This document shows positions 8,671 through 57,279 of a stretch of DNA of 64,000 bases, piece by piece. The stretch is from a phage: the sequence record NC_042307.1. One strand, given 5' to 3'. The notes beneath the pieces were generated by a model, which had not been told where the DNA came from, ran no database searches, and was given only the letters and a program-made list of their open reading frames with translations. Made by a program: the position numbers and the translations under genes. The stretch's first letter is position 1. Every line of letters starts with the position of its first letter.

Positions 8671-10483
8671 ATTAATTGAGAATTGCAAAGGTCTGCTCAC
8701 TCTAACTGCGGATAAGGACTTACAGCATAATAATGCTAATAAGCCTAGTGAGATGTTCCATACTCAAAGAGACTTATTGGCCGGAGAAATCAACAAATAT
8801 TTAGTATCGCAGGAATTACCCAAACATCTATTAGACGCCCATAATCTAGGTAAGATACACATTCATGATATGGATTACAGGGCGCAGGGGTACACTAACT
8901 GTTGCTTAGTAGACCTTGGTGGCATGCTGAAGAATGGTACTAAAATTGGTAATGCAAATATTGAAACTCCTAAATCCATAACTACTGCATGTGCAATCAC
9001 TGCTCAGATTATTGCCCAAGTATCTGGTGCTCAGTATGGTGGCACCTCTATTGATCGTATCGACGAGGTTCTAGCCCCGTATGTCAGAAAGTCTTACAAT
9101 AAACATCTGGGTCGTGGGCTACGTTGGCTCAAGGATGAAAGAAAAGCTGCTGTGTATGCTACTGAGCTTACTGAAAAAGAGTGTTATGATGCATTCCAAG
9201 CTCTAGAGTATGAAACTAATTCATTATTTAACTCTAATGGGCAGACCCCTTTTGTTACGCTTGGCTTTGGATTAGGTCAGGAGTGGGAGGAAAGGATGAT
9301 TCAGAAAGCCATCCTCCAAAATCGTATTAAAGGTTTAGGTGCTGCTGAGTCAACCCCTATCTTCCCTAAACTAGTATTCTCAGTTAAAGAAGGGTTAAAT
9401 AAAAATCCAGGCGATCCTAACTACGATATAAAACAGCTAGCACTTGAGTGTTCTGCTACCCGTATGTACCCAGACTATTTAAGCTATGAGAAAGTTGTAG
9501 CTGTTACTGGTGATTTTAAAGCCCCTATGGGTTGTCGTAGCTTTTTATCTGCTATCCCCTCCGGAGAAATTGCAGGGCGCAATAATTTAGGTGTAGTGTC
9601 TATTAATCTACCTATGGTTGCTGCTGAGGCAGATGGGGTTTTTGAAGATTTCTGGGATATTCTGGACAAATATGTGGATGAGGCTTTTGAAGCTCATGAT
9701 TTTTTCTTGGATAGACTTAAGAAAGTGAAGGCTAAACAAGCCCCTATTCTTTATATGCACGGTGGTTTTGGTGTGCGTTTAGATGGGGAAGAGTATGTAT
9801 GGCCTATTTTTGAGGGTAGATCTTCTGTATCTCTTGGATACATTGGGGTCTATGAGATGTGCCAAATAATGTTTAGTCTACCACAAACCCATAGGGATTG
9901 TATTGAATTTACAGAAGAAGTTCTTACTCACCTAAAAAATCGTTGCGAAGTTAAAGCTAATGAGACTAATCTTGGATTTAGCTTATACGCTACCCCTAGT
10001 GAGTCTCTATGTAATCGTTTTAATAAATTACTAGAACGTAGATTCCCAGAGTATTCTTGGTTAACAGACAAAGGCTATCTTACTAATAGTCACCATTTGG
10101 ACGTAAGAGAGAAGGTAGCCCCAGATACTAAATTTGAGTACGAAGCTCATTTTACCAAAATAGCTAATGGTGGTAATATATCGTTTGTGGAATTACCACA
10201 AATGAAAAAATTCCATAAAGCTCTTGAATACGTAGTAGATAAGGGACTAGAGTGTAGCCATTATATCGGTGTTAATATACCGATTGACGAGTGTTTCAAC
10301 TGTGGATATATGGGTGAATCTATTGCCTCTGAGCGTGGGTTTGTATGTCCAAGTTGTGGGTCTGAAGAAATAGAGGTTACACGTAGGGTTTGCGGGTACC
10401 TGGGATCCCCGGGCAGTAGGCCTTTCAATTCTGGGAAACAAAAAGAAGTGCTTGGTAGAGTAAAACACTTAAATCTTAAGTAA
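8657..10483 (+). CDS. nrdD: anaerobic ribonucleoside-triphosphate reductase
   Basis: 608 aa; C-terminal glycyl-radical motif RRVCGYLG and zinc site CPSCGS. Confidence 0.9.
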   Translation: MTENELIENCKGLLTLTADKDLQHNNANKPSEMFHTQRDLLAGEINKYLVSQELPKHLLDAHNLGKIHIHDMDYRAQGYTNCCLVDLGGMLKNGTKIGNANIETPKSITTACAITAQIIAQVSGAQYGGTSIDRIDEVLAPYVRKSYNKHLGRGLRWLKDERKAAVYATELTEKECYDAFQALEYETNSLFNSNGQTPFVTLGFGLGQEWEERMIQKAILQNRIKGLGAAESTPIFPKLVFSVKEGLNKNPGDPNYDIKQLALECSATRMYPDYLSYEKVVAVTGDFKAPMGCRSFLSAIPSGEIAGRNNLGVVSINLPMVAAEADGVFEDFWDILDKYVDEAFEAHDFFLDRLKKVKAKQAPILYMHGGFGVRLDGEEYVWPIFEGRSSVSLGYIGVYEMCQIMFSLPQTHRDCIEFTEEVLTHLKNRCEVKANETNLGFSLYATPSESLCNRFNKLLERRFPEYSWLTDKGYLTNSHHLDVREKVAPDTKFEYEAHFTKIANGGNISFVELPQMKKFHKALEYVVDKGLECSHYIGVNIPIDECFNCGYMGESIASERGFVCPSCGSEEIEVTRRVCGYLGSPGSRPFNSGKQKEVLGRVKHLNLK

Positions 10484-10490
10484 GCTAATC

Positions 10491-10529
10491 AGCCAGGTTG
10501 CTAGTCGACCTGGCTTTTATTTTATTTGC
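10491..10529 (+). terminator. rho-independent terminator after nrdD
   Basis: stem AGCCAGGT/ACCTGGCT then TTTTATTTTATTT. Confidence 0.7.
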
Positions 10530-10554
10530 TTTCAGCTAAAAATTTATGTATAAT
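10526..10554 (+). promoter_or_regulatory. T5-type early promoter TTGCTT-17-TATAAT
   Basis: followed by conserved ATAAATTTGAGAGG leader and ATG at 10583. Confidence 0.65.
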
Positions 10555-10582
10555 AGATTTATAAATTTGAGAGGAAAAGACT

Positions 10583-32546: not shown

Positions 32547-32574
32547 AAGGGGAGCTACGGCTCCCTTTCTTTTT
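32547..32574 (+). terminator. rho-independent terminator
   Basis: GGGAGC-TACG-GCTCCC then TTTCTTTTT. Confidence 0.7.
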
Positions 32575-32579
32575 AACTT

Positions 32580-33110
32580 ATGAGAAATAAGCTATATTCC
32601 TTATTTTTGGAAGACCCTAAAAAATTCATTTTATTAGTAAATAAATTCAGAGAAAGATTTTCCTATGATCCTGAGTCCGGGCTACTCTCTAGGAAAATAG
32701 GAACGGGTGGTCAGTTACCAGGATCTATAGTAGGCACGGATAATGGAAAAGGATATTTAAGAACCTCATTTAATAAGGAGCAGTATCTTGTACATTTAAT
32801 TATTTATGCCATGCAGACTAATGAAATGGCAGAAGTAGTAGATCACAAAGACTTAGATAAGAAGAATAATAGATGGAGTAATCTAAGACCAACTAATAAA
32901 TCAGGTAATGAAAGAAACACAAGCGTAAGATCTAATAGTACCACAGGTGTTAAAAATGTATATTGGATACCTGGGAGACATAAGTATAGGGTTCAGTTTA
33001 AAATCCACGGAGAAACAAAATACTTTGGATATTATGATACTATTCAAGAAGCAGAAGTAGTAGCTGATAGGGAACGTAGGCGACTACACGGAGAATTTGC
33101 CAGATCATGA
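32580..33110 (+). CDS. HNH homing endonuclease
   Basis: ..FRERFSYDPESGLLSRK..GYLRTSFNKEQYLVHLIIYAM..VDHKDLDKKNNRWSNLR. Confidence 0.7.
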   Translation: MRNKLYSLFLEDPKKFILLVNKFRERFSYDPESGLLSRKIGTGGQLPGSIVGTDNGKGYLRTSFNKEQYLVHLIIYAMQTNEMAEVVDHKDLDKKNNRWSNLRPTNKSGNERNTSVRSNSTTGVKNVYWIPGRHKYRVQFKIHGETKYFGYYDTIQEAEVVADRERRRLHGEFARS

Positions 33111-34084: not shown

Positions 34085-35903
34085 GACACTAAAATTTAGT
34101 AACGTTATGTCTTACGGTAAGGACATCGTAATTCATTTCGATAAGAATCCAGTTACTCAACTAATTGGGGGCAATGGGCTAGGGAAGTCCACTATTGCTA
34201 CGGTTATCGAGGAGTTGTTTTATAACAAGAACTCTCGAGGTATCAAGAAGGATGCATTGTTCTCTTGGAATGCCCCTAAGAAAGAATACGATATGCACGC
34301 TTACTTCTCAAAAGATGAAGATGAGTATGAACTGCATAAAGTAGTTAAATCAACTGCTAAAGTTACACTCATTAAGAATGGAGAAGATATTAGTGGGCAT
34401 ACGGCAACCCAAACATATAAGATGATTGAAGAGATTATGGGTGGTGACTTTCAAACATTCACCAAACTAATTTATCAATCAGTGGGTTCCAACCTAGATT
34501 TTCTAAAAGCAACGGATGCAACACGTAAGGCTTTTCTTGTTAACTTGTTCAATCAAGAGCAATACAAAGAAATGTCGGAAACTATTAAGGCTGACCGTAA
34601 AGAAATAGCAAATACCCTAAATAATTTGCAGGGTCAGATGGCTGTAATTACGAAAATCCTTAATGGGAAAAATAATCTAGGAACTTTGCAGGAACCTGTA
34701 GAAGTACCGGAGTTTGATGAAGAGCCATTAGCACAAGAACTTACTGAATCGAAAATTAAGGCGGCATTAGCCAAGTCACAAGAGGCTAATATTACTAAAC
34801 TCCGTAATTTGGACAAAGCTGTACAAGTTGCCGAACAATCTTTCGAGCCTTTCAAAAATTTCCCTGCGCCCACTGACCAATCTGAAGAGATCTCAAGTGT
34901 TACGCGTGACTTAACGATTGTTACCTCACGTGCGGGAGAAGTCAAGAAACGTTATCAGAAGTTTAAGCAAGAGGCTTCAAATACTGAATGTCCTACTTGT
35001 GGTACGCATCTTGATACAACTGCTGCTCAAAAAGCAATGGATATGGCTAGAACAGAATATGATCCTCTGTTTAAAGAGAAACAATCTCTCGAAGCTACAT
35101 TGGAGCAGTTAAAGAAAGAACAACTCGAGTACGCTGCGTATACTAGAGCTAAGGATGCTTTAGATAAGGCAGTAGCAGCTAGAGACGAGTTCAAAAATTC
35201 AATGAGTGATGCTTCTTTTGAAGAACTCAATGTGCAAATCCTACAGGTGCAAATACGACAATTAGAACAGGAAATCGCTGATGGACGTTCTAAAGTTGCA
35301 ATTGCCAAAGAGCATAATGCAAATGTCGAATTAGCCAATGCAAAATATAAAGCAAAGCTAGAACAGATTGAGAAAGCAGAAGCAGAAATGACTGAGATTA
35401 CTTCCAAACTTGATGGAGTAGCCGAAGCTGTAGCTGATCTTGATATTCTGATCGCTGCATTGAAAAATCTGGTAGGATATAAACTAGAGCATAGTGTGAA
35501 AGTATTTGAGGAATTGATTAATAAATATCTTTCTATTATGACTGGTGGTAAGTTCGCACTTGGATTTGAACTTGATGAAACTAAATTACAAGTAGTAATC
35601 TTCAATGATGGAAACCGTACCAGTATGGAGAACTGCTCTACTGGTCAGCAAAGTAGAATTAACCTAGCAACTCTGTTAGCAATTCGAATGCTGTTAACAT
35701 CTATTAGTAAAGTTAATATTAATCTTCTGTTCCTTGACGAAGTTATTAGCTTTATTGATACGAAAGGACTTGATACTCTCGTTGAATTATTAAATGAGGA
35801 AGATAGTCTGAATTCTATCATTGTTTCTCATGGGCACTCCCATCCGCTGGCACATAAGATTACTGTCAAAAAAGATGCAGAAGGATTTTCCTATTTAGAA
35901 TAA
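34065..35903 (+). CDS. SbcC/Rad50-like ATPase
   Basis: Walker A GGNGLGKST, CxxC zinc hook CPTCG, long coiled-coil region, C-terminal LLFLDEV; start taken at ATG 34065. Confidence 0.75.
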   Translation: MSKITIKTLKFSNVMSYGKDIVIHFDKNPVTQLIGGNGLGKSTIATVIEELFYNKNSRGIKKDALFSWNAPKKEYDMHAYFSKDEDEYELHKVVKSTAKVTLIKNGEDISGHTATQTYKMIEEIMGGDFQTFTKLIYQSVGSNLDFLKATDATRKAFLVNLFNQEQYKEMSETIKADRKEIANTLNNLQGQMAVITKILNGKNNLGTLQEPVEVPEFDEEPLAQELTESKIKAALAKSQEANITKLRNLDKAVQVAEQSFEPFKNFPAPTDQSEEISSVTRDLTIVTSRAGEVKKRYQKFKQEASNTECPTCGTHLDTTAAQKAMDMARTEYDPLFKEKQSLEATLEQLKKEQLEYAAYTRAKDALDKAVAARDEFKNSMSDASFEELNVQILQVQIRQLEQEIADGRSKVAIAKEHNANVELANAKYKAKLEQIEKAEAEMTEITSKLDGVAEAVADLDILIAALKNLVGYKLEHSVKVFEELINKYLSIMTGGKFALGFELDETKLQVVIFNDGNRTSMENCSTGQQSRINLATLLAIRMLLTSISKVNINLLFLDEVISFIDTKGLDTLVELLNEEDSLNSIIVSHGHSHPLAHKITVKKDAEGFSYLE

Positions 35904-38788: not shown

Positions 38789-38816
38789 AAAATACGCAGC
38801 CGAAGCCGCGTATTTT
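38789..38816 (-). terminator. hairpin terminator downstream of the tail-fibre gene
   Basis: 9-bp stem AAAATACGC/GCGTATTTT with GC-rich inner stem; U-rich 3' arm on minus strand. Confidence 0.5.
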
Positions 38817-38820
38817 AGGA

Positions 38821-41088
38821 TTAAGGAAGGTCTTGATTTGGAGCGGGGTCTTCAGGTAGAGTGGTTGGTTTATCTTCTAACAAAGACTCTAACTTACTGA
38901 CACGGGCGCTTAGCACCTGGATAGCAGCAAGCGCATCCAGTAACAGCACGTTAGTATCAAGCGAAAGAATTGTATTTCCCTCCTTGTCCTCGCTTGAGTG
39001 TGTGTATTCAGGGTCTATGGTTGCCGCTTGCTGTGCAATGATTCCACGACGTACCCGACGCTTTATATCATCTTTGAAGATAAACGTCACGAGCTCTAAC
39101 TGATTGATGTTGTTTAACGCACTCTTACCGTCCCATGGCTCAACCTGTTCTTTATAATCAATGTCGCTTGTAGGATCCAGCGTTACTCGCCCAATACGAG
39201 TACTATCAATCCATACATCGACTCCCGGATTTTCCCACGAGAAAGAATAGCTATTTGCTTGGAAATTACCACCAATACCTCTACGGCAAATGACACCTGC
39301 CGAGGGTAAGAGAGTTGTTAAGCGAGTAGCATCGTAGGTATCTAAAACAGATCGTGCAGTTCCATCGTAAAAATCTACACGAGCGGCGTACTGTGTCACC
39401 TGCCCCGCCCCATAACTCAACTCCATGTTACCGGACGCCTCTCCTGGCGCACCTGTGTTACGACTAATAATCAGGCTTCTAATATTAGACATTTCGCCAA
39501 AGTCGCTAAAAAGATACTCCCAGCTTTCACCGGACACTCGAGTAGGCTTAATGCAGGCATATGTGACGCTTCCTACTGTGTGGTTTACGTAAAAATCAGC
39601 AGTCGCCGTTCCGATACCATAGCCTTCTACAATTGATCGCCACGACCAACCCAAAATTTGACCTGTTGAGCCAGCAGGATAATAATGTTTAGTAGCAATC
39701 ATGGCGGTCGCAGTGTCACCACCTTTGGACAGCGCCCCGATGTTGTTGCGAGCACCCTCTGCGTCCCAAGCTCCAGTGCCGCCCTGTCCTACTCCTAAAG
39801 GTTTAAATACATTACTAGTATCGTCATAGACACCCCAAGACCCTGTATCCATTACAACTAAGTTGTAGCGGTTTGTCGGGTCATAAATGCGGGAACTATC
39901 AGCGCTCTGTTTAAGACGATCCACACTTAGGTTTATACGAGCCTGTACCTTGTCACTTAAGTCTGCAAGGTTCTGATCCTTTAACAAAGATATGCTCAAA
40001 GTTTGTTCAGCTTTGTTTGCTGCGGTCTCAGCTCGAGTTGCGGAACTGGATGCTGCTACGGCTTGTTCTCCTGCGGTTGTAGCGCTTCCAGCCGCGGCTG
40101 TAGCCTGTTCTGTAGCCGTTACTGCCTTTTGTCCAGCTAAGGTGGCAGCGTCTTCCGCAGCTTGTTTTAACGGGGTGATTTCAGCAATTGCGTTTGCCTT
40201 AGCTGTGTCAATTGCTCCTACTGCGTCCGTCTTAGCTGCTCCAATCTCTGTCGCCGCACCTTCTTTAATGGTCTGAGTGTCCGCTTTAAGCTGTTCAACA
40301 TCGGACTTAAGACCCTGTATTGTGGTCATAGCTTGCGTAGCTATGTTCGCGCTATCTGATGCACCTTGCTGAGCTAGCTTAGCAGCGTCTTCACTAGCTT
40401 TTGAGTTAATTTCGCTAGTCTTTGTATTAGTTTCTGAGTTTTTTGCTGCTAATGCTGATGTGGAGGCTTGTGCAGCGAATGCTTCTGCTTCATCCCTGAA
40501 TCCTTTGGAGTCAGAAGCAGAGGCAGCGGAATCAGCAGCATTAGTCTCGCTAGTTTTTGCTGCTGCTGCATATGCTGCTGCATTAGTCTCGCTAGTTTTT
40601 GCGTTAGTCTCACTAGTTTTTGCATTAGTCTCACTAGTTTTTGCTGCAGCTGATGATTCTAGAGCGTTAGTTTCACTAGTTTTTGCTGCAGCTGATGATT
40701 CTGCAGCTTTAGTAGCGGACGCAGCAGATTGAGAAGCAGAAATAGCAGAGGCATCGGCACTATCTTTAGATAAACCAGCTTGTCTCTCCGCTTCAGTAGC
40801 AGAAGTAGCAGATTGAGTTGCAGAAGCTTCTGAAGAGTTAGCATAATTTGCAGATAGGTTCTCAGAGTCCTTAGCATTTATTTCAGATTCTTTTGCTGCA
40901 ATTTCAGAATCTTTTGCAGCCGCAGCAGACTTAGCTGCTGCCTCAATAGAAGATACTAACTCACTTGCAGTAATAGAGCTAATAGAATTACCTAGAGTTA
41001 CTGTATATCTAGGAAACTTACTAGCAGTAGCTTTAGTATCGTCAATATTTAATATCTGTTGTACAATAATTTTAGTAGTTACTGACAT
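38821..41088 (-). CDS. ltf: L-shaped/side tail fibre protein with C-terminal intramolecular chaperone (S74-like) domain
   Basis: 755 aa; AKTSETN heptad repeats; C-terminal ..SDIDYKEQVEPWDGKSALNNINQLELV.. resembles autoproteolytic chaperone domains. Confidence 0.65.
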   Translation of the reverse strand: MSVTTKIIVQQILNIDDTKATASKFPRYTVTLGNSISSITASELVSSIEAAAKSAAAAKDSEIAAKESEINAKDSENLSANYANSSEASATQSATSATEAERQAGLSKDSADASAISASQSAASATKAAESSAAAKTSETNALESSAAAKTSETNAKTSETNAKTSETNAAAYAAAAKTSETNAADSAASASDSKGFRDEAEAFAAQASTSALAAKNSETNTKTSEINSKASEDAAKLAQQGASDSANIATQAMTTIQGLKSDVEQLKADTQTIKEGAATEIGAAKTDAVGAIDTAKANAIAEITPLKQAAEDAATLAGQKAVTATEQATAAAGSATTAGEQAVAASSSATRAETAANKAEQTLSISLLKDQNLADLSDKVQARINLSVDRLKQSADSSRIYDPTNRYNLVVMDTGSWGVYDDTSNVFKPLGVGQGGTGAWDAEGARNNIGALSKGGDTATAMIATKHYYPAGSTGQILGWSWRSIVEGYGIGTATADFYVNHTVGSVTYACIKPTRVSGESWEYLFSDFGEMSNIRSLIISRNTGAPGEASGNMELSYGAGQVTQYAARVDFYDGTARSVLDTYDATRLTTLLPSAGVICRRGIGGNFQANSYSFSWENPGVDVWIDSTRIGRVTLDPTSDIDYKEQVEPWDGKSALNNINQLELVTFIFKDDIKRRVRRGIIAQQAATIDPEYTHSSEDKEGNTILSLDTNVLLLDALAAIQVLSARVSKLESLLEDKPTTLPEDPAPNQDLP
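40538..40702. repeat. tandem 21-bp repeats (~5 copies, unit TTAGTCTC[G/A]CTAGTTTTTGC) plus a duplicated 40-bp unit inside the tail-fibre gene
   Basis: repeats read directly; encode AKTSETN repeats. Confidence 0.8.
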
Positions 41089-46423: not shown

Positions 46424-47034
46424 AAACTTTCCCGTAAATTTAATGAGATGCCGGAATATGTTCCGTTATTATTTAATGTAGATCCGAAAGCATCACCATT
46501 CATGAGTTTTGTTCTAAATAGTATCCCATTAAATACTGGTTTTTCAGCTCCAGTAGTAGTTACAAATAAATCAGGGTATAAATTTATAGACCATATATTG
46601 CCTGATTTGTTAAATGATGTTATTTTATATACTTTTGGGTGGTTAGACAGCTTAAATAGATCCCCCGGTTTTGGAGTACCCGTTAGGAGCCCTTTTGTAT
46701 CCATAGTAATATTGGAACCTTTTTGTCCTGCTGGTATATTTACTGAGTTAGTATTACCCCTAACCCTAAAAGCCTCATACTGAGGTAATATAACATCAAT
46801 GTAGCCTCCTGTCCTCTTATACTCTAGAATAAAGGAATCTAGAACACTATATTCATCTGGAAACAATTCTGGGTAAGAAATGTTTATACCCCAGTACTGA
46901 GCAGATACCTTAACTTCGTTAACTTTACCATTAGGTAACTCATCACGAATTACTGGGTCATTATCAATCAGGTTAACACTTTCGAATCCTAATCCTGAAA
47001 GTTCTGGATTCGTGTATGGGTCTGGTAATCTCAT
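46420..47034 (-). CDS. distal tail protein (Dit, pb9-like)
   Basis: 204 aa; immediately downstream of tape measure gene; GAGGAG upstream. Confidence 0.5.
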   Translation of the reverse strand: MRLPDPYTNPELSGLGFESVNLIDNDPVIRDELPNGKVNEVKVSAQYWGINISYPELFPDEYSVLDSFILEYKRTGGYIDVILPQYEAFRVRGNTNSVNIPAGQKGSNITMDTKGLLTGTPKPGDLFKLSNHPKVYKITSFNKSGNIWSINLYPDLFVTTTGAEKPVFNGILFRTKLMNGDAFGSTLNNNGTYSGISLNLRESL

Positions 47035-47061: not shown

Positions 47062-47090
47062 ATTATAATAGTATTAGAAAATTTTATCAA
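47062..47090 (-). promoter_or_regulatory. sigma70-like promoter on minus strand (TTGATA -35 at 47085-47090, 17-nt spacer, TATAAT -10 at 47062-47067) upstream of dit
   Basis: read from reverse complement. Confidence 0.45.
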
Positions 47091-47116
47091 GAAATTTTTA
47101 TTTTTCCATAAAGAAA

Positions 47117-47137
47117 AGGAGGACTCAAAGTCCTCCT
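47117..47137 (-). terminator. terminator hairpin just downstream of the tape measure gene
   Basis: AGGAGGAC-TCAAA-GTCCTCCT; U-rich tract follows on minus strand. Confidence 0.6.
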
Positions 47138-47143
47138 CCAGTT

Positions 47144-50100
47144 TTAAGAATTTCCTAGTGTTTTTAGGCTAGCACCATTCTCATTCAGAGCTAATTCTAC
47201 TGCATCCCTCAGAGCACCGCTATTACTAGAGGCGAACTCTCTAAAACTAGCGGCATCCATAGCACTAATATTCAGGATGATAGGTCTTCCTGAGGTTGAA
47301 TTAGAGGAATTTTTTAACTCATCATTAGGCGTAGCTTTCATAGGAATCATAGGTGTAATTACTTCTGTACCATGTTCTCCCATCTGGTAGCTAACCCCTG
47401 GGTACATATTACCACCTTCGGCACGCGGCACAAATGAATTAGCATTACCAATACCTTGATCACCACGTACATAAGATAGTTCTCCAGCATTAGCAGACAT
47501 AGATACATCAATGTTCTTCTGACGCTCTCCAAGAGTTAAATAACTAGTAGTATCCGCTCCAGAATCTGCAATACTTGACATACTAGAGGCAGAGGATGCC
47601 TGCGCTAATGCCAGAGCACCTGCTAATCCTGCCGCTACCATCAGAGGGATAGAGAACGGGTATGGTACAGCTGTTGCTGCCTGCATAACTGCTACTGCAG
47701 TTTGGATGATAATCTGCTTCTTAGCTGCATCTTGTTGAATCTTCAGCTTTTCAGCTTCTAGCTTCTTCAATTTAGCTTTAGATGCTTCTGATTTACCATC
47801 ACGTTTCTGCTCCGCTGCGATAGCTGCATCAATAGCACTAACCTGTTGACTAGTACTATACTGAATCATAGAAGATACAGTTTGCATGCCAGAAGCAATC
47901 AAGGAGGTAGTATCTAGGGATCCCTGAGAGAACTGAATCATAGCGTTAGTTAAGTTACCCATACTTTGAGCCACAGCGGTTGCTTCAGAATTTAATTCAG
48001 ATAGCTTAGAGATTGCCTGATCATAAGAAGCCATTCTATTTTGCATATCTGCAAAATCTTTGTCTTCCCCAGATAGTCCAGTTGTAGGAGTGTACACAGC
48101 ACCCACAGAAGATCCTACCTGTTGCTGCATTTGGCCTTCTCTTTGCTTTCTAAGTTGCTCTAGAGCAGCAGCAGTTTTATAGATCTCATTACGATACTTG
48201 ATCTCTTCTTCGGTATTGCCCTTAGATAGTTCTAGCTGTTCTTGCAAAACAGATAATCTTTCCGTAAGAATCTGAGCTTGGCCAGTAACATTTCTTTGTG
48301 TTTGGCTGACTTCTAGTGCATCCATGAGAGCTGATACATGTGAGGCAGTTGCCTGCTTCTCCGCCTCCCATAACTCCCGGCTTATTTGTGCTTGCGCACG
48401 TCTAGACTGTTCCGCCTCTTTCTGTTTGTCCGCTTGTTTTGTATACCATTCGTACTTCTCTTTCTCTACAGTTAGTTCTAGTTTTAGCTGAGCTAATCTA
48501 TATTGAGTAGTAGTCATAGTACGGTCATTCAGAAGAGCTATCTCACGATCTACACCAAGAATTTTATCTGTGTAATCCTTGACCTTCTTCTGGGCTTCCA
48601 TACCCTGATTGGTAAGTTTAAGTTTCTCCAGCTGAATTTTTTCAATTTCTTTCTCAACAGCTTTATTTCCCTGGTTTGTTTGAAGAACACGGCGTAAAGC
48701 AGCTTCTTGCTCTTCTAACTGTTGCAACTCTAAACGTCTACCAGCTTCCTGAGCCTTTTCCTTATCCTTAGTTTGATTATACACATCTGCTATCTTCTGA
48801 TGAACAGCCAACTGATTCTTAGTCTCATTACCAGTTAGCTTAACGTATTCAGACAAGGCTTGAGAAGCAGTTTTCATCTCAGATAGTGTGTTATAACCTA
48901 GGTTAAGGTTTTTAACATACTCATCTGCGCTTTTACCGGTACCTTGAGATAGAGATTCTATGTTTTTTATAGCATCTGCTAAAGTAGCACTAGTTTTAGC
49001 TGCAGTATCTGTATTCTGAGCAACGTTTTGTATATCATTAGCTAAGTCACTAGCAGTTTTCTTAGTTTGATTATATGCTTTCTGTTGTTCAGTTAGTCCT
49101 TTTAATACTGTGGAGTTAAAGTCATATACAGCACCAGGATCAGTAGTATCCCTCTGTAGATTAATCTGTTTTTGGAATTCTGGATTAGCTTTTGCAGCAG
49201 CAGCACCCGCAGCTTGATAGGCTGACTTCCAAGCATTAAGGTTTTCAGTAGAATCTTCTACCTCCTTACCTAGTCTGGTTACTTGTAGACCCATAGCCGC
49301 AGTTTCTTCTACGAATTTTTTATTAGCTTCGGAAGCACCGGCAGCAGCAAGACCAACAGGAATACCTTCACCAACTTGACGTATGGCTAATCTTGTATAG
49401 AAATCCGCTTGCTCCATTCGTTTATCGAATTCGGATTTTAGCTTATTACGCTTATCAAGAGATTCCTTATACATATCTAGAGCTTTATTATAGCCTTCTT
49501 CAGAAGCGGCCAAACTTAAAGCAACAGCACCAACGTTGGTAGGATCTATCTGTCTATTAGTTTTTTCTTGAGCTCTAGCTGCTTCAGCAGATACAGAAGC
49601 CTGAGAAGTATAAAATACTGTGTTGATAGCATCAATTACTGGCCCTAAGTACTTAGCAGCAGCCTGCTGAATCTTTCTCAGTGCGGCATCAGCATTAGCG
49701 GCAAACTGCTCCCACGGGGTAGCACGTAAAACTTCATCTAAGTAACCAAAACGTTTAGTAGACTCTGCTATAACAGCATTAGCATACGCTTGCTGTTTCT
49801 GGAAGGTAGTAAGGCTATTAATATTATATGTTATACCTGTGTTTGCAGCATTTAACTGTTTAACGTAATCAGCATAAGCATCGTTAAGACGAATAGTAAC
49901 ACCAAGCTCATCCAGAAGTTCGATTTCCTGTTTAGATACACCCTTAATTACACGGTTAAGTGCATCAGTCATATCAACGCCAAGAACAGCAGCAGCACGA
50001 CGAGCTACTAGACCAAATTTATTAAGTTGTTCAGCATCAAAACCGTATGCAGAAGCAGAGGATGCTTGTCTCATAGCTTCTTCAAAGGAAATAGCGTACC

Positions 50101-50824
50101 CGGCTGCTTCTTGTAGGGATCTAGCAAGGGACTGAACAGGAGTACCTGTCTGAGTACCCACTATAACACCAAATTTTTCTAGACGATTTAGCTGATCACC
50201 TAGTTTAAGTTGTTCGAATGCAGATTGCAAAACGAAGATGTTGGAAGCAAGAGCTGCATACATAATAGGTAAACTACCACCGATCTTAGCCATTGCTGCA
50301 AAGTCACGGGTAGCCCCACGTGCCGAACCAGAAGTATTACCAATAGCTCTAGAAGCTCTACCAGCAGCACCAGTAGTATCATTAAAGCCTTTAGCCGTAC
50401 CTCCTAAAGCCCTATTAGTGTCGTATAACCTATCTTGAACTTTCTCTGTTGCAGCTGCAACATCATTGCCCATTGTTTTAACAGATCTAGAAACTCCATC
50501 GAATCCAACTTCTAGCTTATCAGCTACCTCGATCATTGTAATAGCAAGGTCGTCCAGCTTAGCTCCTATATCATTAATAGATTTAGTAACACTAAGCATA
50601 CCCCTACTAGCCTGCATTTTAGTAAGACTTTTTGCTGCTCTATCTGCTGCCCTCTCAATGGAGTATAGAGTTTTGGGCATTTTACCTAACTGTTCATTCG
50701 TTAGCTCAGAAGCCGCAGCAGCATTCTCTAATGCATCAGATACGTTTTCAATAGACTTTGCAGTACGAGTTGCCCCCTTCTGTTTAACGTCTATTAGTAA
50801 TTCTCGTATTAGCTTATCAGTCAT
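47144..50824 (-). CDS. tail tape measure protein (pb2-like)
   Basis: 1226 aa; long alpha-helical/coiled-coil character; position. Confidence 0.75.
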   Translation of the reverse strand: MTDKLIRELLIDVKQKGATRTAKSIENVSDALENAAAASELTNEQLGKMPKTLYSIERAADRAAKSLTKMQASRGMLSVTKSINDIGAKLDDLAITMIEVADKLEVGFDGVSRSVKTMGNDVAAATEKVQDRLYDTNRALGGTAKGFNDTTGAAGRASRAIGNTSGSARGATRDFAAMAKIGGSLPIMYAALASNIFVLQSAFEQLKLGDQLNRLEKFGVIVGTQTGTPVQSLARSLQEAAGYAISFEEAMRQASSASAYGFDAEQLNKFGLVARRAAAVLGVDMTDALNRVIKGVSKQEIELLDELGVTIRLNDAYADYVKQLNAANTGITYNINSLTTFQKQQAYANAVIAESTKRFGYLDEVLRATPWEQFAANADAALRKIQQAAAKYLGPVIDAINTVFYTSQASVSAEAARAQEKTNRQIDPTNVGAVALSLAASEEGYNKALDMYKESLDKRNKLKSEFDKRMEQADFYTRLAIRQVGEGIPVGLAAAGASEANKKFVEETAAMGLQVTRLGKEVEDSTENLNAWKSAYQAAGAAAAKANPEFQKQINLQRDTTDPGAVYDFNSTVLKGLTEQQKAYNQTKKTASDLANDIQNVAQNTDTAAKTSATLADAIKNIESLSQGTGKSADEYVKNLNLGYNTLSEMKTASQALSEYVKLTGNETKNQLAVHQKIADVYNQTKDKEKAQEAGRRLELQQLEEQEAALRRVLQTNQGNKAVEKEIEKIQLEKLKLTNQGMEAQKKVKDYTDKILGVDREIALLNDRTMTTTQYRLAQLKLELTVEKEKYEWYTKQADKQKEAEQSRRAQAQISRELWEAEKQATASHVSALMDALEVSQTQRNVTGQAQILTERLSVLQEQLELSKGNTEEEIKYRNEIYKTAAALEQLRKQREGQMQQQVGSSVGAVYTPTTGLSGEDKDFADMQNRMASYDQAISKLSELNSEATAVAQSMGNLTNAMIQFSQGSLDTTSLIASGMQTVSSMIQYSTSQQVSAIDAAIAAEQKRDGKSEASKAKLKKLEAEKLKIQQDAAKKQIIIQTAVAVMQAATAVPYPFSIPLMVAAGLAGALALAQASSASSMSSIADSGADTTSYLTLGERQKNIDVSMSANAGELSYVRGDQGIGNANSFVPRAEGGNMYPGVSYQMGEHGTEVITPMIPMKATPNDELKNSSNSTSGRPIILNISAMDAASFREFASSNSGALRDAVELALNENGASLKTLGNS

Positions 50825-50846
50825 ATTTTATTTTTCCCAATAAAAA

Positions 50847-50871
50847 GGCTCTGGGCATATCACCCAGAGCC
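50847..50871 (-). terminator. hairpin upstream of tape measure start, followed on minus strand by UUUUUAUUGGGAAAAAUAAAAU-AUG
   Basis: 9-bp stem GGCTCTGGG/CCCAGAGCC. Confidence 0.55.
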
Positions 50872-50907
50872 AAGCCTCATCGTGGAACGCCCCATTGGAG
50901 GAAACTT

Positions 50908-51363
50908 TTACCGTGCACGAGATCTAGCATGTGGCTTAACGTTAGGTATTCTACCGTTTTGCGGCTTATGCTTCTCAGCACGTTTACGTGCAGCGTCTAC
51001 AGCTTTAGCATCAAATATATTGATGATGTGTAGAACAAATTCTTTTTCTATAGGATCGGTAATCCCATAAATATCGAATAAAACACCTAGGGCAGCCTTG
51101 TCTTTACCTATAAAGATAGGGAAGTCACCAGGTATGAAACAGTCAACTAGACTATTATAAATATTCATACTAATAGCTACAATAGGTGGAAAATCTTCAA
51201 GTTCAACAGGCATAGCCTTAGGATCAGGTTCTATACCCATTGACTCACAAAGTATTAAATATTGTTGTTTAGTCATTTTAGATGCTGAGCTTTTAATACA
51301 CTTATCTGCAAAATCAGCAACAGCATCTAGTAGTTCTTTACGCTTTTGAGCTACGAAAAGTGT
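50908..51363 (-). CDS. tail assembly chaperone, T-frame ORF; frame open upstream of its ATG (51276) back to 51363 and no SD, probably a frameshift extension of 51338..51757
   Basis: frame verified codon by codon; overlaps upstream gene by 24 nt. Confidence 0.45.
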   Translation of the reverse strand, partial: TLFVAQKRKELLDAVADFADKCIKSSASKMTKQQYLILCESMGIEPDPKAMPVELEDFPPIVAISMNIYNSLVDCFIPGDFPIFIGKDKAALGVLFDIYGITDPIEKEFVLHIINIFDAKAVDAARKRAEKHKPQNGRIPNVKPHARSRAR

Positions 51364-51757
51364 CTAAGTGGAACACTGTCTGGTTGATCCAAGAATCAAA
51401 CGCAGCAGAGTTCTGCATAAGCATTACAGCATTATCACGACTAAATGAAACTTCAGTAGCAGGATCAGCATCTGTTTCAATCAGCATCAGTTTTTCAACA
51501 TCGCCTACAGTCAAACCAGTCCAACCTTTAATCGCAGCATCAACGAAAGCCTCAATAAACTTATCGTCATCCTGTACTTGAATTAGAGTACCATTAACCC
51601 ATTCATCGCGTTTGGCAGAAGAGACAACACGCTTAGAAGTAGCACGAGACATGTAGTTAAGCTCTAGCTTAAAGTTTGGCATACCTGGGTATGAAAGAGT
51701 AATAGTACGGGTATCAAGAGTAATATCTTTTAAGTTAATCATTTTTAATTTCTCCAA
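51338..51757 (-). CDS. tail assembly chaperone (G-like)
   Basis: 139 aa; position upstream of tape measure. Confidence 0.45.
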   Translation of the reverse strand: MEKLKMINLKDITLDTRTITLSYPGMPNFKLELNYMSRATSKRVVSSAKRDEWVNGTLIQVQDDDKFIEAFVDAAIKGWTGLTVGDVEKLMLIETDADPATEVSFSRDNAVMLMQNSAAFDSWINQTVFHLDTFRSSKA

Positions 51758-54074: not shown

Positions 54075-54560
54075 TTATCTGCGAAGTGACCTACGTGGAG
54101 GCTGATACCTCACTGTTACATTTATTTCTGCTAAACCATATGGGGCCAGTAGACCCTCATCTGTACTAACTGATGTAATGCTCATATCAGTCGCCTCACA
54201 TGGGAAGGTCGATCCATTAGGTTTACTAACAGTATATTCTAAATTTCCACCTGTGTCAATAACGGTTTTTATATCCGCTACGAGTTTTTCAAGTTGCTCT
54301 TGAATGTCTGTTTTCTCTTTATCGTACACCAGGATTGGAAGTTCTAAAAACATCCACTGTTGACCTGAAGGAAGATACTGCCCAGTTTCAGTTCCGATAT
54401 GAACTGCAACATAAGGAAACTCTCGTATCTCCTCAAACTTATAAGTTTGACGTGAGACGTTTCCATACAAGTTATTAAAATATTCATCTGGTCGGGAGCC
54501 ATCCATTTGTTTGGCTATTCGATCAACCAGAGCTTGTGCTATACTTGTTCTGTGATCCAT
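54075..54560 (-). CDS. putative tail completion / head-tail joining protein
   Basis: 161 aa; position. Confidence 0.35.
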   Translation of the reverse strand: MDHRTSIAQALVDRIAKQMDGSRPDEYFNNLYGNVSRQTYKFEEIREFPYVAVHIGTETGQYLPSGQQWMFLELPILVYDKEKTDIQEQLEKLVADIKTVIDTGGNLEYTVSKPNGSTFPCEATDMSITSVSTDEGLLAPYGLAEINVTVRYQPPRRSLRR

Positions 54561-54563
54561 TTA

Positions 54564-55331
54564 TTAGGTTCCTTGATTAACCTTAATTTTGTATCTGGAG
54601 TGAATTAAGTCTCTTGCAGCTTTAGCTATAGCCTCTCCAATTAGTCTTTGAGGGTTTCTAGCACCTGGGTAGGGTCGTAATGACAATCTTCGATATGTAG
54701 ATACTGCAGGATTAAATACTGAATATGGACGTACCATATAATTATATGTAACATTTAATTCAGGAGCACCTTTGCTAGTTCCAGCATCTCTAAGCATAAC
54801 ATCTTTAACTTTTAGAGAATTTGCAAAACGACCTGTTCTAAATTTAAGTGGAGCTCCTGCTTTTTTCATATCCTTTATTAAGTATTCTTTAGCAACCAAC
54901 TCCAGAATAACCTTCATATTACTGTTTGATACAAAACGACCAGAAGCACCTGTTACTGCGCCGGAATACCCACCCTCAACATCACTAGGATCACCAAAGT
55001 TTACCTGTACCCTACCAGTAGAACGTTTTTTACCTACAGAGGATTTTTTACCAGCGGTTGCTTGAATAAGGCTTTCTAAAGCCCCTAAGTCTCCTGTTAG
55101 ATCTAAGCTAGAAGATACAGCTTTTAGAATAGAAGCGGTCCTAACATTAAGGAGATCTTGGGATACAGGTTTTGAGAACTTAAAAGATACCTGAGCAACA
55201 GTACCATCCCTAGTAGGATCTTTTAGTCCTGTTTCAATAGAATATACAACAGTATTCTTATTGTTCTCGGAACGCCCAACATTATCTAGCTGCTCCTTAA
55301 TAATTTGTGTAGCTAAGTCAGAAAGAGACAT
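54564..55331 (-). CDS. putative head-tail joining protein
   Basis: 255 aa; position. Confidence 0.35.
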   Translation of the reverse strand: MSLSDLATQIIKEQLDNVGRSENNKNTVVYSIETGLKDPTRDGTVAQVSFKFSKPVSQDLLNVRTASILKAVSSSLDLTGDLGALESLIQATAGKKSSVGKKRSTGRVQVNFGDPSDVEGGYSGAVTGASGRFVSNSNMKVILELVAKEYLIKDMKKAGAPLKFRTGRFANSLKVKDVMLRDAGTSKGAPELNVTYNYMVRPYSVFNPAVSTYRRLSLRPYPGARNPQRLIGEAIAKAARDLIHSRYKIKVNQGT

Positions 55332-55843
55332 TATACTCTCCTGTAAACTTCAATAATAGTACGAATATGCTCTGGAATACCAGACTTAGTATTATTAAAA
55401 GTAACTGTTTCTCCGCCAATTGTTTTAGCTTGACGGTAATCCTGTTTATGCCAATGATCTACTAGCATACATGCTGCAAGTTTGAGATCCTCAGGTATTG
55501 GATTAAATCCACCTTGTGTGTATTCTACATCCATATAACCTTCCGGAGGATTAAATTTAAGAAGTATAACCCCATCAGAGTACAACTTATACTGTTCGGG
55601 ATCTATCTCCTTATCATTAATAGTCATTTTGGTTACTGAAGTAGCTGAGGGAGAACTTAAAAAGTATTTTTTACGAGTAGGTTTTGTATTGATTAACTGG
55701 TCTACCGCATCAGCATCATCCATACCTAAAAGGCTAGTAATCAGCGCATTGGCAGCAGTAATCATCATCTCTATTCCAGATTCTAGTTCAGGTCGTTTTA
55801 AACCACCGTATAATCTATAGTCTTCAGCTGTGATTATTTGCAT
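55331..55843 (-). CDS. putative head completion protein
   Basis: 170 aa; first gene after capsid-gene terminator. Confidence 0.35.
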   Translation of the reverse strand: MQIITAEDYRLYGGLKRPELESGIEMMITAANALITSLLGMDDADAVDQLINTKPTRKKYFLSSPSATSVTKMTINDKEIDPEQYKLYSDGVILLKFNPPEGYMDVEYTQGGFNPIPEDLKLAACMLVDHWHKQDYRQAKTIGGETVTFNNTKSGIPEHIRTIIEVYRRV

Positions 55844-55861
55844 TTATTTTTCCCAATAAAA

Positions 55862-55883: not shown

Positions 55884-55902
55884 ATCGGCTGAAAAGCCTG
55901 TA

Positions 55903-57279
55903 TTAAGCGGTAGCGTAAGCACCGGATACAACACCATTACTAAAGTAACGTTGCAGGTTAACACGCTGAGTAACGTAGTATGCATCACGCTGTTTACCAG
56001 CTTGGCGCTCACGTTCAACAGTAACAGCACGCTGACGTGGCATTACGAAGTTATCTTTATAAACAATAACTGCGAACTCTTTCTCAGCTGCTTTAGCTGG
56101 GAAGTACTCAGAAACCACAACCGGCAGACCATAAATACGACCAACCTGACCTTGCAGTTTAACAGCATCGTTACCAACCTGTGCAACATCCTGCCATTCT
56201 TCATCTTCCAGAAGATCATAGTAAGCATCCATAGATACGATAAGTACCAGTTTGCTCAGTTTCAGACCATGACGGCCCAGTTTACGACGCAGTTTAGAGA
56301 TAGTTTTAGCAGTTACCAGAACAGAACCATCAGCTTTAGCTTCAGTAGTAACTTTAGCACCATCATCTTCAGCCAGTTTCAACAGACCTTTCGGCTTACC
56401 AGTACCATCACCAGTCATAAAAGCTTCTTCGATAGAAACAGCGTGTGCTTCAATCAGACGCTTACGCAGCAGCGGCAGCAGGGAGAAGATTGCATCTTCT
56501 TCAGTTTCATCAGTAATGAAGGACTTAGCAGCCAGTTTGTAAGTACTGAAGTGAATTTCTTTAAGAGCACCTTTAACTTCATCACCGGTAGTAGTATCAG
56601 TACCATAAGTAGAAGCAGCAACCCAAGTAGCTTTACCAGCATCCGGTTCAACCAGCATAGTAAGAATCTTACTGGACATCGGCAGTTCTTCAAACAGTGC
56701 GCCAACTACCAGCTCTTTCTGCAGGTCACGGATAATACGCTGAGAGAAAATAGTTTCATAGCTTTCACTAGAAACTTCTACAGAAGAAGACTGATTCACT
56801 GCTTTCAGGTGTTTTTGACCGTGTTCGGTTTCGAATACACCTTTTTCCATTACGTAAGACAACAGAACCAGTTTTTCTACTTCGTCTTCAAAGTTTTCCT
56901 GAGTACCATACAGTGCTTTAGCAACACTATCACCAACGAAGGAACGACCTTCACGAGCTGTTAGCAGAGATTTAATTTCGTCCTGAAGACCAACAATAGT
57001 TTCCTGTTGTTTTTCTACAGTTTGTGCAAACAGTTCTGCGCTCTTCTTAGATTTCTCATCCAGAGACTTAACCAAATCCAGAGCCTCTTCCAGACGCTTA
57101 CGGTCTTCACCAACAGCTTTAGAAACTAGGTCATTCATACGAGCCAGTTCTTTTTCTTCCTGCTCTTTACGCATACGTTCAGCTTCCTGAGCTTTCTGAG
57201 CAGCGGTCAGACCTTCCAGAGATTTAGCCAGATCACCCAGACCAAGTTCTTCTTTCAGCTTATTAATATCAATAGTCAT
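55903..57279 (-). CDS. major capsid protein precursor with N-terminal scaffold-like domain (pb8-like)
   Basis: 458 aa; charged coiled-coil N-terminal third then HK97-like fold region; strong terminator downstream. Confidence 0.7.
   Translation of the reverse strand: MTIDINKLKEELGLGDLAKSLEGLTAAQKAQEAERMRKEQEEKELARMNDLVSKAVGEDRKRLEEALDLVKSLDEKSKKSAELFAQTVEKQQETIVGLQDEIKSLLTAREGRSFVGDSVAKALYGTQENFEDEVEKLVLLSYVMEKGVFETEHGQKHLKAVNQSSSVEVSSESYETIFSQRIIRDLQKELVVGALFEELPMSSKILTMLVEPDAGKATWVAASTYGTDTTTGDEVKGALKEIHFSTYKLAAKSFITDETEEDAIFSLLPLLRKRLIEAHAVSIEEAFMTGDGTGKPKGLLKLAEDDGAKVTTEAKADGSVLVTAKTISKLRRKLGRHGLKLSKLVLIVSMDAYYDLLEDEEWQDVAQVGNDAVKLQGQVGRIYGLPVVVSEYFPAKAAEKEFAVIVYKDNFVMPRQRAVTVERERQAGKQRDAYYVTQRVNLQRYFSNGVVSGAYATA

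Follow-up and report, generated by a model that had tools for sequence, protein, structure and literature searches.

The closest described analogues of the elements considered here are T-phi of phage T7, the leaky terminators of phage phiX174 and the terminator behind the capsid gene of phage SPP1. T-phi is a partial intrinsic terminator located directly after gene 10, which encodes the major capsid protein, and the tail genes downstream of it are reached by read-through only. In phiX174, leaky terminators following genes J, F, G and H give rise to graded amounts of structural mRNA within a single unit. In SPP1, a terminator is predicted at nt 8775-8815, immediately behind the major capsid gene 13, and its U-tract enters the next Shine–Dalgarno (SD) sequence, TTTTTTTGAAAGGAG. 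Within the T5 group itself, the RefSeq record of phage T5 (NC_005859) lists a "putative rho-independent transcription terminator" at each of the three hairpin positions discussed below, and a further T5 record, AY587007, likewise annotates the three. Since they are annotated in T5, the terminators are already known and the feature is an ordinary one. Their NC_005859 counterparts are as follows.

92087-92113: counterpart of site 3
96553-96587: counterpart of site 1
101563-101586: counterpart of site 2

The stretch analysed, hereafter the window, comprises 64,000 nt of NC_042307.1 and, judged by its sequence, comes from a T5-like phage (Demerecviridae) whose late genes lie on the minus strand. 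A 301-nt query spanning site 1 matched 443 phage records, the best of them T5-like Salmonella and Escherichia phages at 96-98% identity, and the order of minus-strand open reading frames (ORFs) is that of the T5 late region: terminase and portal, protease, major capsid, head completion, tail completion and tail terminator, followed by tube, baseplate tube, two tail assembly chaperones, tape measure and distal tail. The genes that frame the hairpins are these.

55903-57279, minus strand: major capsid protein gene (458 aa), stop at 55903
55331-55843, minus strand: head completion protein gene (170 aa), ATG at 55843, with a full-length match to PF24163
ending at 50908, minus strand: tail assembly chaperone gene (122 aa)
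47144-50824, minus strand: tape measure protein gene (1226 aa), ATG at 50824-50822

The PF24163 match covers all 170 residues of the head completion protein and starts at residue 2. At the chaperone pair, the second ORF (region 51276-51365, minus strand; start at 51276, devoid of an SD) is shifted by +1/-2 against the first, which stops at 51338, and stays open for about 25 nt across the end of the first ORF, near UCA AAA GCG UAA. This overlap might be a candidate non-standard frameshift site, reminiscent of the G/GT chaperones of other siphophages.

We propose, with a probability of roughly 0.8, that sites 1 and 2, which precede the tape measure and head completion genes, are Rho-independent terminators that probably act as partial stops (attenuators), packed against the weak initiation region of the next gene. 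The evidence comprises sequence anatomy, thermodynamics, conservation, covariation and the positional homology of SD elements. The individual parts of the three sites are as follows.

55887-55898, minus strand: small hairpin GGCT-TTTC-AGCC upstream of site 2, in the 3'UTR of the capsid gene; relatives keep the stem and vary the loop
55862-55883, minus strand: site 2 terminator hairpin, GGAGAGC-UUCG-GCUCUCC plus two A-U pairs, -14.5 kcal/mol, T-tail 3.8
55844-55861, minus strand: remainder of the site 2 U-tract and leader, TTTTATTGGGAAAAATAA, abutting the ATG of the head completion gene
50847-50871, minus strand: site 1 terminator hairpin, GGCTCTGGGTGATATGCCCAGAGCC, 10-bp stem, 5-nt loop, -19.1 kcal/mol, T-tail 4.3
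50839-50846, minus strand: site 1 U-tract, TTTTTATT, which is TTTTTTATT in most T5-likes
50825-50838, minus strand: site 1 leader, GGGAAAAATAAAAT, a weak SD-like GGGA and an A-rich spacer abutting the tape measure ATG
47115-47139, minus strand: site 3 terminator hairpin, GGAGGAGGACTTTGAGTCCTCC, -15.5 kcal/mol, T-tail 2.4, with a weaker U-tract, TTTTCTTTAT

Read along the transcript, site 1 passes from the hairpin GGCTCTGGGTGATATGCCCAGAGCC through TTTTTATT, GGG and AAAAATAAAAT to the ATG at 50824 (or, written as one string, GGCTCTGGGTGATATGCCCAGAGCC-TTTTTATTGGGAAAAATAAAAT-ATG), with only 22 nt between hairpin and start codon. Site 2 passes from AAGGAGAGC-TTCG-GCTCTCCTT through TTTTATT, GGG and AAAAATAA to the ATG at 55843 (AAGGAGAGCTTCGGCTCTCCTT-TTTTATTGGGAAAAATAA-ATG). 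Site 3 consists of the hairpin GGAGGAGGACTTTGAGTCCTCC, located after the tape measure stop at 47144, and then TTTTCTTTATGGAAAAATAAAAA. The three stems comprise 9-11 pairs, begin 4-36 nt after a stop codon and are followed immediately on their 3' sides by the U-rich tracts UUUUUAUU, UUUUUUAUU and UUUUCUUUAU; their fold z-scores are about -3.2, and a consensus scan of the minus strand from 44 to 64 kb placed all three within the top four terminator-like sites. The hairpins of sites 1 and 2 are not alike and not homologous. Elsewhere on the minus strand, another terminator-like hairpin, with a UUCG loop, occupies 38789-38816, 3' of a 755-aa late ORF (38821-41088) that bears internal tandem repeats with a 42-nt period at 40424-40728.

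An A-U interrupts the U run at both sites 1 and 2, as it does in most relatives, and this detail is reminiscent of the HUB motif, GC(U)7RU, found in strong intrinsic terminators, at which the transcript is released at the U following the purine (Battaglia et al., 2026, preprint). Downstream of the stem, the conserved UUUUUUAU likewise consists of a U run and then a purine-U at the expected release site (-2R/-1U), although the run is 5-6 nt here rather than 7, and a GC at -11/-10, counted from the presumed 3' end, fits only some of the sequences, namely site 1 in most T5-likes. The purine-U of the motif offers a reason why TTTTTTATT, rather than a plain run of T, is constant throughout the family.

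Beyond the hairpins, sites 1 and 2 contain an identical 20-mer, TTTTTATTGGGAAAAATAAA, which runs up to the ATGs of the tape measure and head completion genes. Its 16-mer core occurs in exactly two perfect copies in the 64-kb window, the sole near copy (one mismatch) being at 34660 on the plus strand, within a coding region; a search for further copies of the whole cassette within the window returned none. In order-2 Markov simulations of the window a repeated 20-mer appeared in 0 of 40, and chance is not expected to yield an exact repeat of this length. The first-pass annotation of this DNA had proposed that the same sequence stands before the tape measure gene (50824) and the gene starting at 55843, which is borne out by the 20-mer and by the hairpins at 50871-50847 and 55883-55862. 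Its further proposal, that terminators are fused here to the initiation region of the next gene, agrees with the hairpin energies, the U-tracts, the T5 annotation, the covariation of the stem and the positional homology of the SD elements. It had also placed the terminators after highly expressed genes, which is directly true only of site 2, behind the major capsid gene; site 1 follows a chaperone gene and closes the tube and chaperone unit, and site 3 follows the low-copy tape measure gene. The 20-mer is most likely a composite of a U-tract with a purine-U interruption, UUUUU(U)AUU, a weak SD, GGGA, and an unstructured A-rich spacer, AAAAUAA(A). In T5-likes the exact identity of the two leaders nevertheless exceeds the strict needs of a U-tract, an SD and a spacer, and the identical leaders could conceivably be read by a common factor.

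The third, diverged copy of the cassette that the first-pass annotation had placed after the tape measure stop holds up in part: the hairpin exists (47139-47115), but what follows it is a promoter and not a start codon. Two annotated T5 promoters, P-G25 and P-J5, are both present in the window, and the elements concerned are these.

54231-54259, minus strand: P-J5 homologue, TTGACA-17-TATACT, inside the tail terminator protein gene and upstream of the tube gene
47062-47110, minus strand: P-G25 homologue, TTGATA-17-TATAAT (47090-47062)
ATG at 47034, minus strand: start of the distal tail protein gene, preceded, downstream of P-G25, by a strong SD, AAGAGGAG

The A-rich stretch ATGGAAAAATAAAAATTTC, on which the notion of a third copy rested, occupies the upstream-element position of P-G25, and the annotated span of that promoter begins with TATGGAAAAATAAAAATTTCTTGATA; the "third copy" thus lies in the AT-rich upstream part of P-G25. 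In the early region, a hairpin plus U-tract (AAGGGGAGCTACGGCTCCCTTTCTTTTTAACTT; 32547-32582, plus strand), a further case of a terminator set against a start codon, has the ATG of the next ORF immediately 3' of it and no SD-like element. Early promoters of the window recur as six repeats of about 53 nt (TTTATTTGCTTTCAGG…TGTATAATAGATTCATAAATTTGAGAG) resembling the classic strong T5 promoters, at 10491-10573 (this first copy on the plus strand), 18255, 20498, 21673, 26216 and 31250, the first of which directly follows a terminator hairpin at 10491-10515.

The initiation element at the end of the cassette is weak. The duplex between GGGA and the anti-SD amounts to -4.2 kcal/mol, and its distance to the ATG is 7 nt at site 2 and 10 nt at site 1. 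Several other late genes pair with the anti-SD more strongly, at -7 to -11.6 kcal/mol, yet still others in the window have SDs as weak as this one, and the argument from a weak SD is therefore a relative one. Homologous positions in relatives are more telling. After TTTTTTATT, at the same position, GGAGG, GAGG, AGGAG or GGGG is found in Vibrio phage JSF10, Pectobacterium phage DU_PP_V and the genomes labelled L087, L091, L093, L095, L099 and L260, and the site 1 position in relatives holds GGAG or GAGG; examples of such canonical SDs are TTATTGGAGGTAATAAAATG in JSF10, TTATTAGAGGTATATAATG in DU_PP_V, TTATTGAGGAAAATATATG in L091 and TTATTTGAGGTAATAAAATG at site 1 of L260. Because relatives have canonical SDs there, GGGAA may be understood as a weakened SD in the standard place, and the earlier suggestion that it is the SD-like element gains from its sharing both the position of GGAGG, GAGG or AGGAG and the spacing of an SD.

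How far does this arrangement extend? Both spacers are nearly invariant among the 27-28 T5-like genomes of an IMG/VR sample. Mean divergence from the window, computed over 27 genomes, is 0.025 in the intergenic sequence of site 2 and 0.037 in that of site 1, as compared to 0.16-0.25 at the third codon positions of the flanking genes, so that the spacers diverge 5-8 times less than the neighbouring third codon positions. Sites 1 and 2 have 20-25 identical nt in common in Tequintavirus and Epseptimavirus, the 25 nt of Epseptimavirus-like genomes including the ATG. Variants at one site (ATTAGG or GG in place of GGG, a run of 13 T) are unmirrored at the other site of the same genome; the run of 13 T is an outgrown site 2 U-tract in one T5-like genome (L004, ~1470-1500). 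As the variants do not co-vary within genomes, each site appears to be maintained independently, and their being site-specific speaks against concerted evolution or gene conversion of the two. A dispersed repeat or mobile cassette can also be set aside, given two copies per genome at fixed homologous positions, unlike hairpins and, outside the T5-likes, exact 16-mer matches in IMG/VR that are scattered single chance matches in unrelated viral contigs.

Outside these genera the letters change and the plan stays. The order stop, hairpin, TTTTTTATT, SD and ATG is found at both sites in Klebsiella phage KPN4, DU_PP_V and JSF10. Capsid stop, hairpin, U-tract, SD and ATG follow one another in Sugarlandvirus, Hongcheonvirus, Jesfedecavirus and metagenomic relatives down to ~44% capsid identity, and the site 1 architecture is present in Proteus phage Stubb and several Vibrio phages. 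In these other genera the leaders of sites 1 and 2 are unlike one another and unlike those of T5. Four of nine pairs of the site 1 stem show double compensatory changes (KPN4, JSF10, Stubb). At site 2, relatives present at least nine different hairpin sequences, with energies of -12 to -21 kcal/mol, while the hairpin-to-ATG distance (the leader) keeps to 15-26 nt in 13 of 14 relatives. By these comparisons of sequence, the hairpin and leader arrangement is not special to the phage of NC_042307.1.

The same spacers have received genes in some members. T5 itself has a 250-aa gene inserted right after the site 1 U-tract, replacing GGGAAAAATAAAAT, and its tape measure gene therefore has another leader than that of the window, which represents the uninterrupted form. 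The inserted gene (L001 7736-8548 / L113 5778-6530), annotated as an endonuclease and bearing a CapR homology domain and a treble-clef zinc finger, extends from the site 1 U-tract (…TTTTTTATT) to the tape measure gene, overlapping the ATG of the latter with its own stop codon (ATGA). In Vibrio members, an extra gene of ~250 aa that matches no Pfam family separates the tape measure gene from the site 1 terminator; its positions are as follows.

L059, 15048-15803: extra gene of a Vibrio member
L274, 1631-2389: extra gene of a Vibrio member
L277, 1579-2316: extra gene of a Vibrio member

In three T5-like genomes (L017, L019 and L024, ~1400-1500) an extra ORF separates the site 2 hairpin from the capsid gene. 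Taken together, these extra ORFs suggest that the spacers beside the terminators are landing sites for inserted genes.

Could the hairpins serve an end other than termination? They might chiefly be elements of RNA stability or processing, the polymerase reading through and the stem-loops blocking 3'-to-5' exonucleases after cleavage, in which case upstream segments such as the capsid mRNA would accumulate relative to downstream ones. The stability of the hairpins fits this, as do the conserved 3'UTRs upstream of both, which are possible processing or binding sites, and such protection is compatible with termination and may add to it. For blocking an exonuclease, however, a long U-tract with a conserved A-U interruption would be superfluous, as these are termination-specific traits, and the U-tract is conserved family-wide; we consider protection unlikely to be the main function. 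A promoter is the least probable of the functions proposed. In AY587007, the feature "putative late promoter T5P40" covers the hairpin of site 2 along with its leader and 40 nt at the start of the gene, and the A-rich run of site 2 could be imagined as an upstream element, as at P-G25, since a similar run lies just upstream of the P-G25 -35 at site 3 and sites 1 and 3 have a 33-nt similarity of 73%. The -35/-10 pairs at sites 1 and 2, on the other hand, all score below 9/12; sigma-70 hexamers spaced 16-18 nt apart and placed upstream of the gene they serve occur only at site 3, where they are those of P-G25. Moreover, the start and hexamers of T5P40 would fall inside the head completion ORF, the N-terminus of which is conserved, with PF24163 matching from residue 2, and the T5P40 call in AY587007 rests on a shortened version of that ORF.

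The identity of the two leaders invites readings of its own. It may be a leftover of a duplicated terminator cassette, or an effect of composition, with no function beyond AT-richness; the region is indeed AT-rich, chance 16-mers turn up in many unrelated viral contigs, and the hairpins at the two sites are non-homologous. Against this stand the result of the 40 simulated windows, in none of which a 20-mer was repeated, and the divergence 5-8 times below that of third codon positions, and a function is indicated both by the placement just ahead of start codons and by the SD elements that relatives have at the homologous position; a mere remnant is very unlikely. Conversely, the leader UUAUUGGGAAAAAUAAA may be bound specifically by a factor of the phage or its host, for example a repressor or activator of translation, and head completion and tape measure would then be co-regulated. 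The AU inverted repeat of the leader, UUUUAUU-GGGAAA-AAUAAAA, with a GGGAAA loop predicted at site 2, would suit such a factor, and so would the 20-25 identical nt between the sites in Tequintavirus and Epseptimavirus and the strong purifying selection on the leader. Yet the AU stem is very weak and a generic role is already available for every part of the sequence; the leaders of other genera differ while the architecture persists, variants at one site are unmirrored at the other, and T5 retains viability with its site 1 leader replaced by the inserted gene. A dedicated factor site is accordingly a highly improbable reading, and we return to partial terminators joined to weak initiation regions as the preferred one.

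One part of site 1 goes beyond these elements, namely a block in the 3'UTR between the chaperone stop and the hairpin.

50881-50904, minus strand: conserved non-coding block, TTTCCTCCAATGGGGCGTTCCACG

The block occurs once in the window. Several genera preserve it almost unchanged and Vibrio phages recognisably, far better than the adjacent chaperone protein, which is 39-55% identical across those genera. A 1-nt G indel among close T5-like relatives indicates that the block and the site 1 spacer are not coding. Its TTTCCTCCAA.GGGCGTTCCACG resembles the 16S anti-SD (CCUCC). RNAalifold across relatives retained only the terminator helix and no conserved helix in the block, an Rfam search with the block and site 1 gave only sub-threshold chance matches, and a pattern scan for more copies was swamped by chance matches and added one new sequence. 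In the minimum free energy fold of site 1, GUUCC-A-CGAUGAGG pairs with UUUUAUUG-GGAA, and the prediction has the SD-like bases paired. Masking of the SD or U-tract by the block was considered on this ground and rejected: the duplex stands out against shuffles (z about -2.6) only in T5-likes and is not notable in JSF10, L260, PVo5, Stubb or valsw3, which argues against family-wide masking. It is conceivable that the block and hairpin together form a putative 3'UTR-derived regulatory RNA, which might pair with ribosome-binding sites. That the non-coding surroundings of site 1 constitute a functional RNA (block plus hairpin) or a site for a factor tuning read-through into the tape measure gene, beyond terminating and initiating, is quite unlikely in our estimate. 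The block is nonetheless the sole part of the locus with some potential for novelty.

If sites 1 and 2 are partial terminators, the late region would be expressed in steps. A polymerase halted at a hairpin would leave an abundant, 3'-protected mRNA of the upstream genes. Site 2 would end the upstream late genes, portal through major capsid, and read-through past it would provide the transcripts for head completion, tail completion and tail terminator. P-J5 would then supply transcripts for tube, baseplate tube and chaperones, with site 1 as their end; the tape measure gene would be transcribed by read-through of site 1 alone, in a unit ending at site 3, after which P-G25 would restart transcription for the distal tail and baseplate genes. 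Thus, expression would be stepped down after the capsid gene and again after the tube and chaperone genes, and the low-copy head completion and tape measure genes would possess only read-through mRNA, translated from a weak SD. The case is clearest for the tape measure gene. Its ATG is only 22 nt away from the site 1 hairpin, which leaves no room for a promoter, and this, together with two bracketing terminators, implies full dependence on read-through. The tape measure protein is a low-copy protein, present as a trimer per virion, and expression by read-through only would fit that need. Literature searches for T5-like transcript maps returned no experimental 3'-end, Northern or read-through data. 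The efficiency of termination, the extent of read-through and the resulting protein ratios are inferred from the arrangement, and the "fixed expression ratios" between structural genes that had been suggested for this coupling would likewise be a presumed consequence of it.

Such an arrangement would explain how hundreds of capsid and tube subunits and few head completion and tape measure proteins are made from one late region using host polymerase signals only. It is of use in annotating and engineering T5-like phages, which are often considered for therapy; an insert downstream of one of these hairpins, for example, should be expressed at a low level. Current understanding is unchanged, given that the terminators have been annotated before and that phages commonly use such a design. 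With respect to T5, the elements are the same three, at homologous positions and of near-identical sequence, and what differs is that the identity between the leaders of sites 1 and 2 is absent from the T5 annotation. T-phi of T7 differs in being encountered by the T7 RNA polymerase, whereas T5-likes use the host polymerase, and in not being fused to the next start. The terminators of phiX174 belong to a small single-stranded DNA phage and are weak ones, not repeated cassettes. SPP1, also a siphophage, likewise shows a hairpin and U-tract directly after the capsid stop and adjoining an SD, but in a phage of a Gram-positive host, with a strong downstream SD and no relation in sequence.
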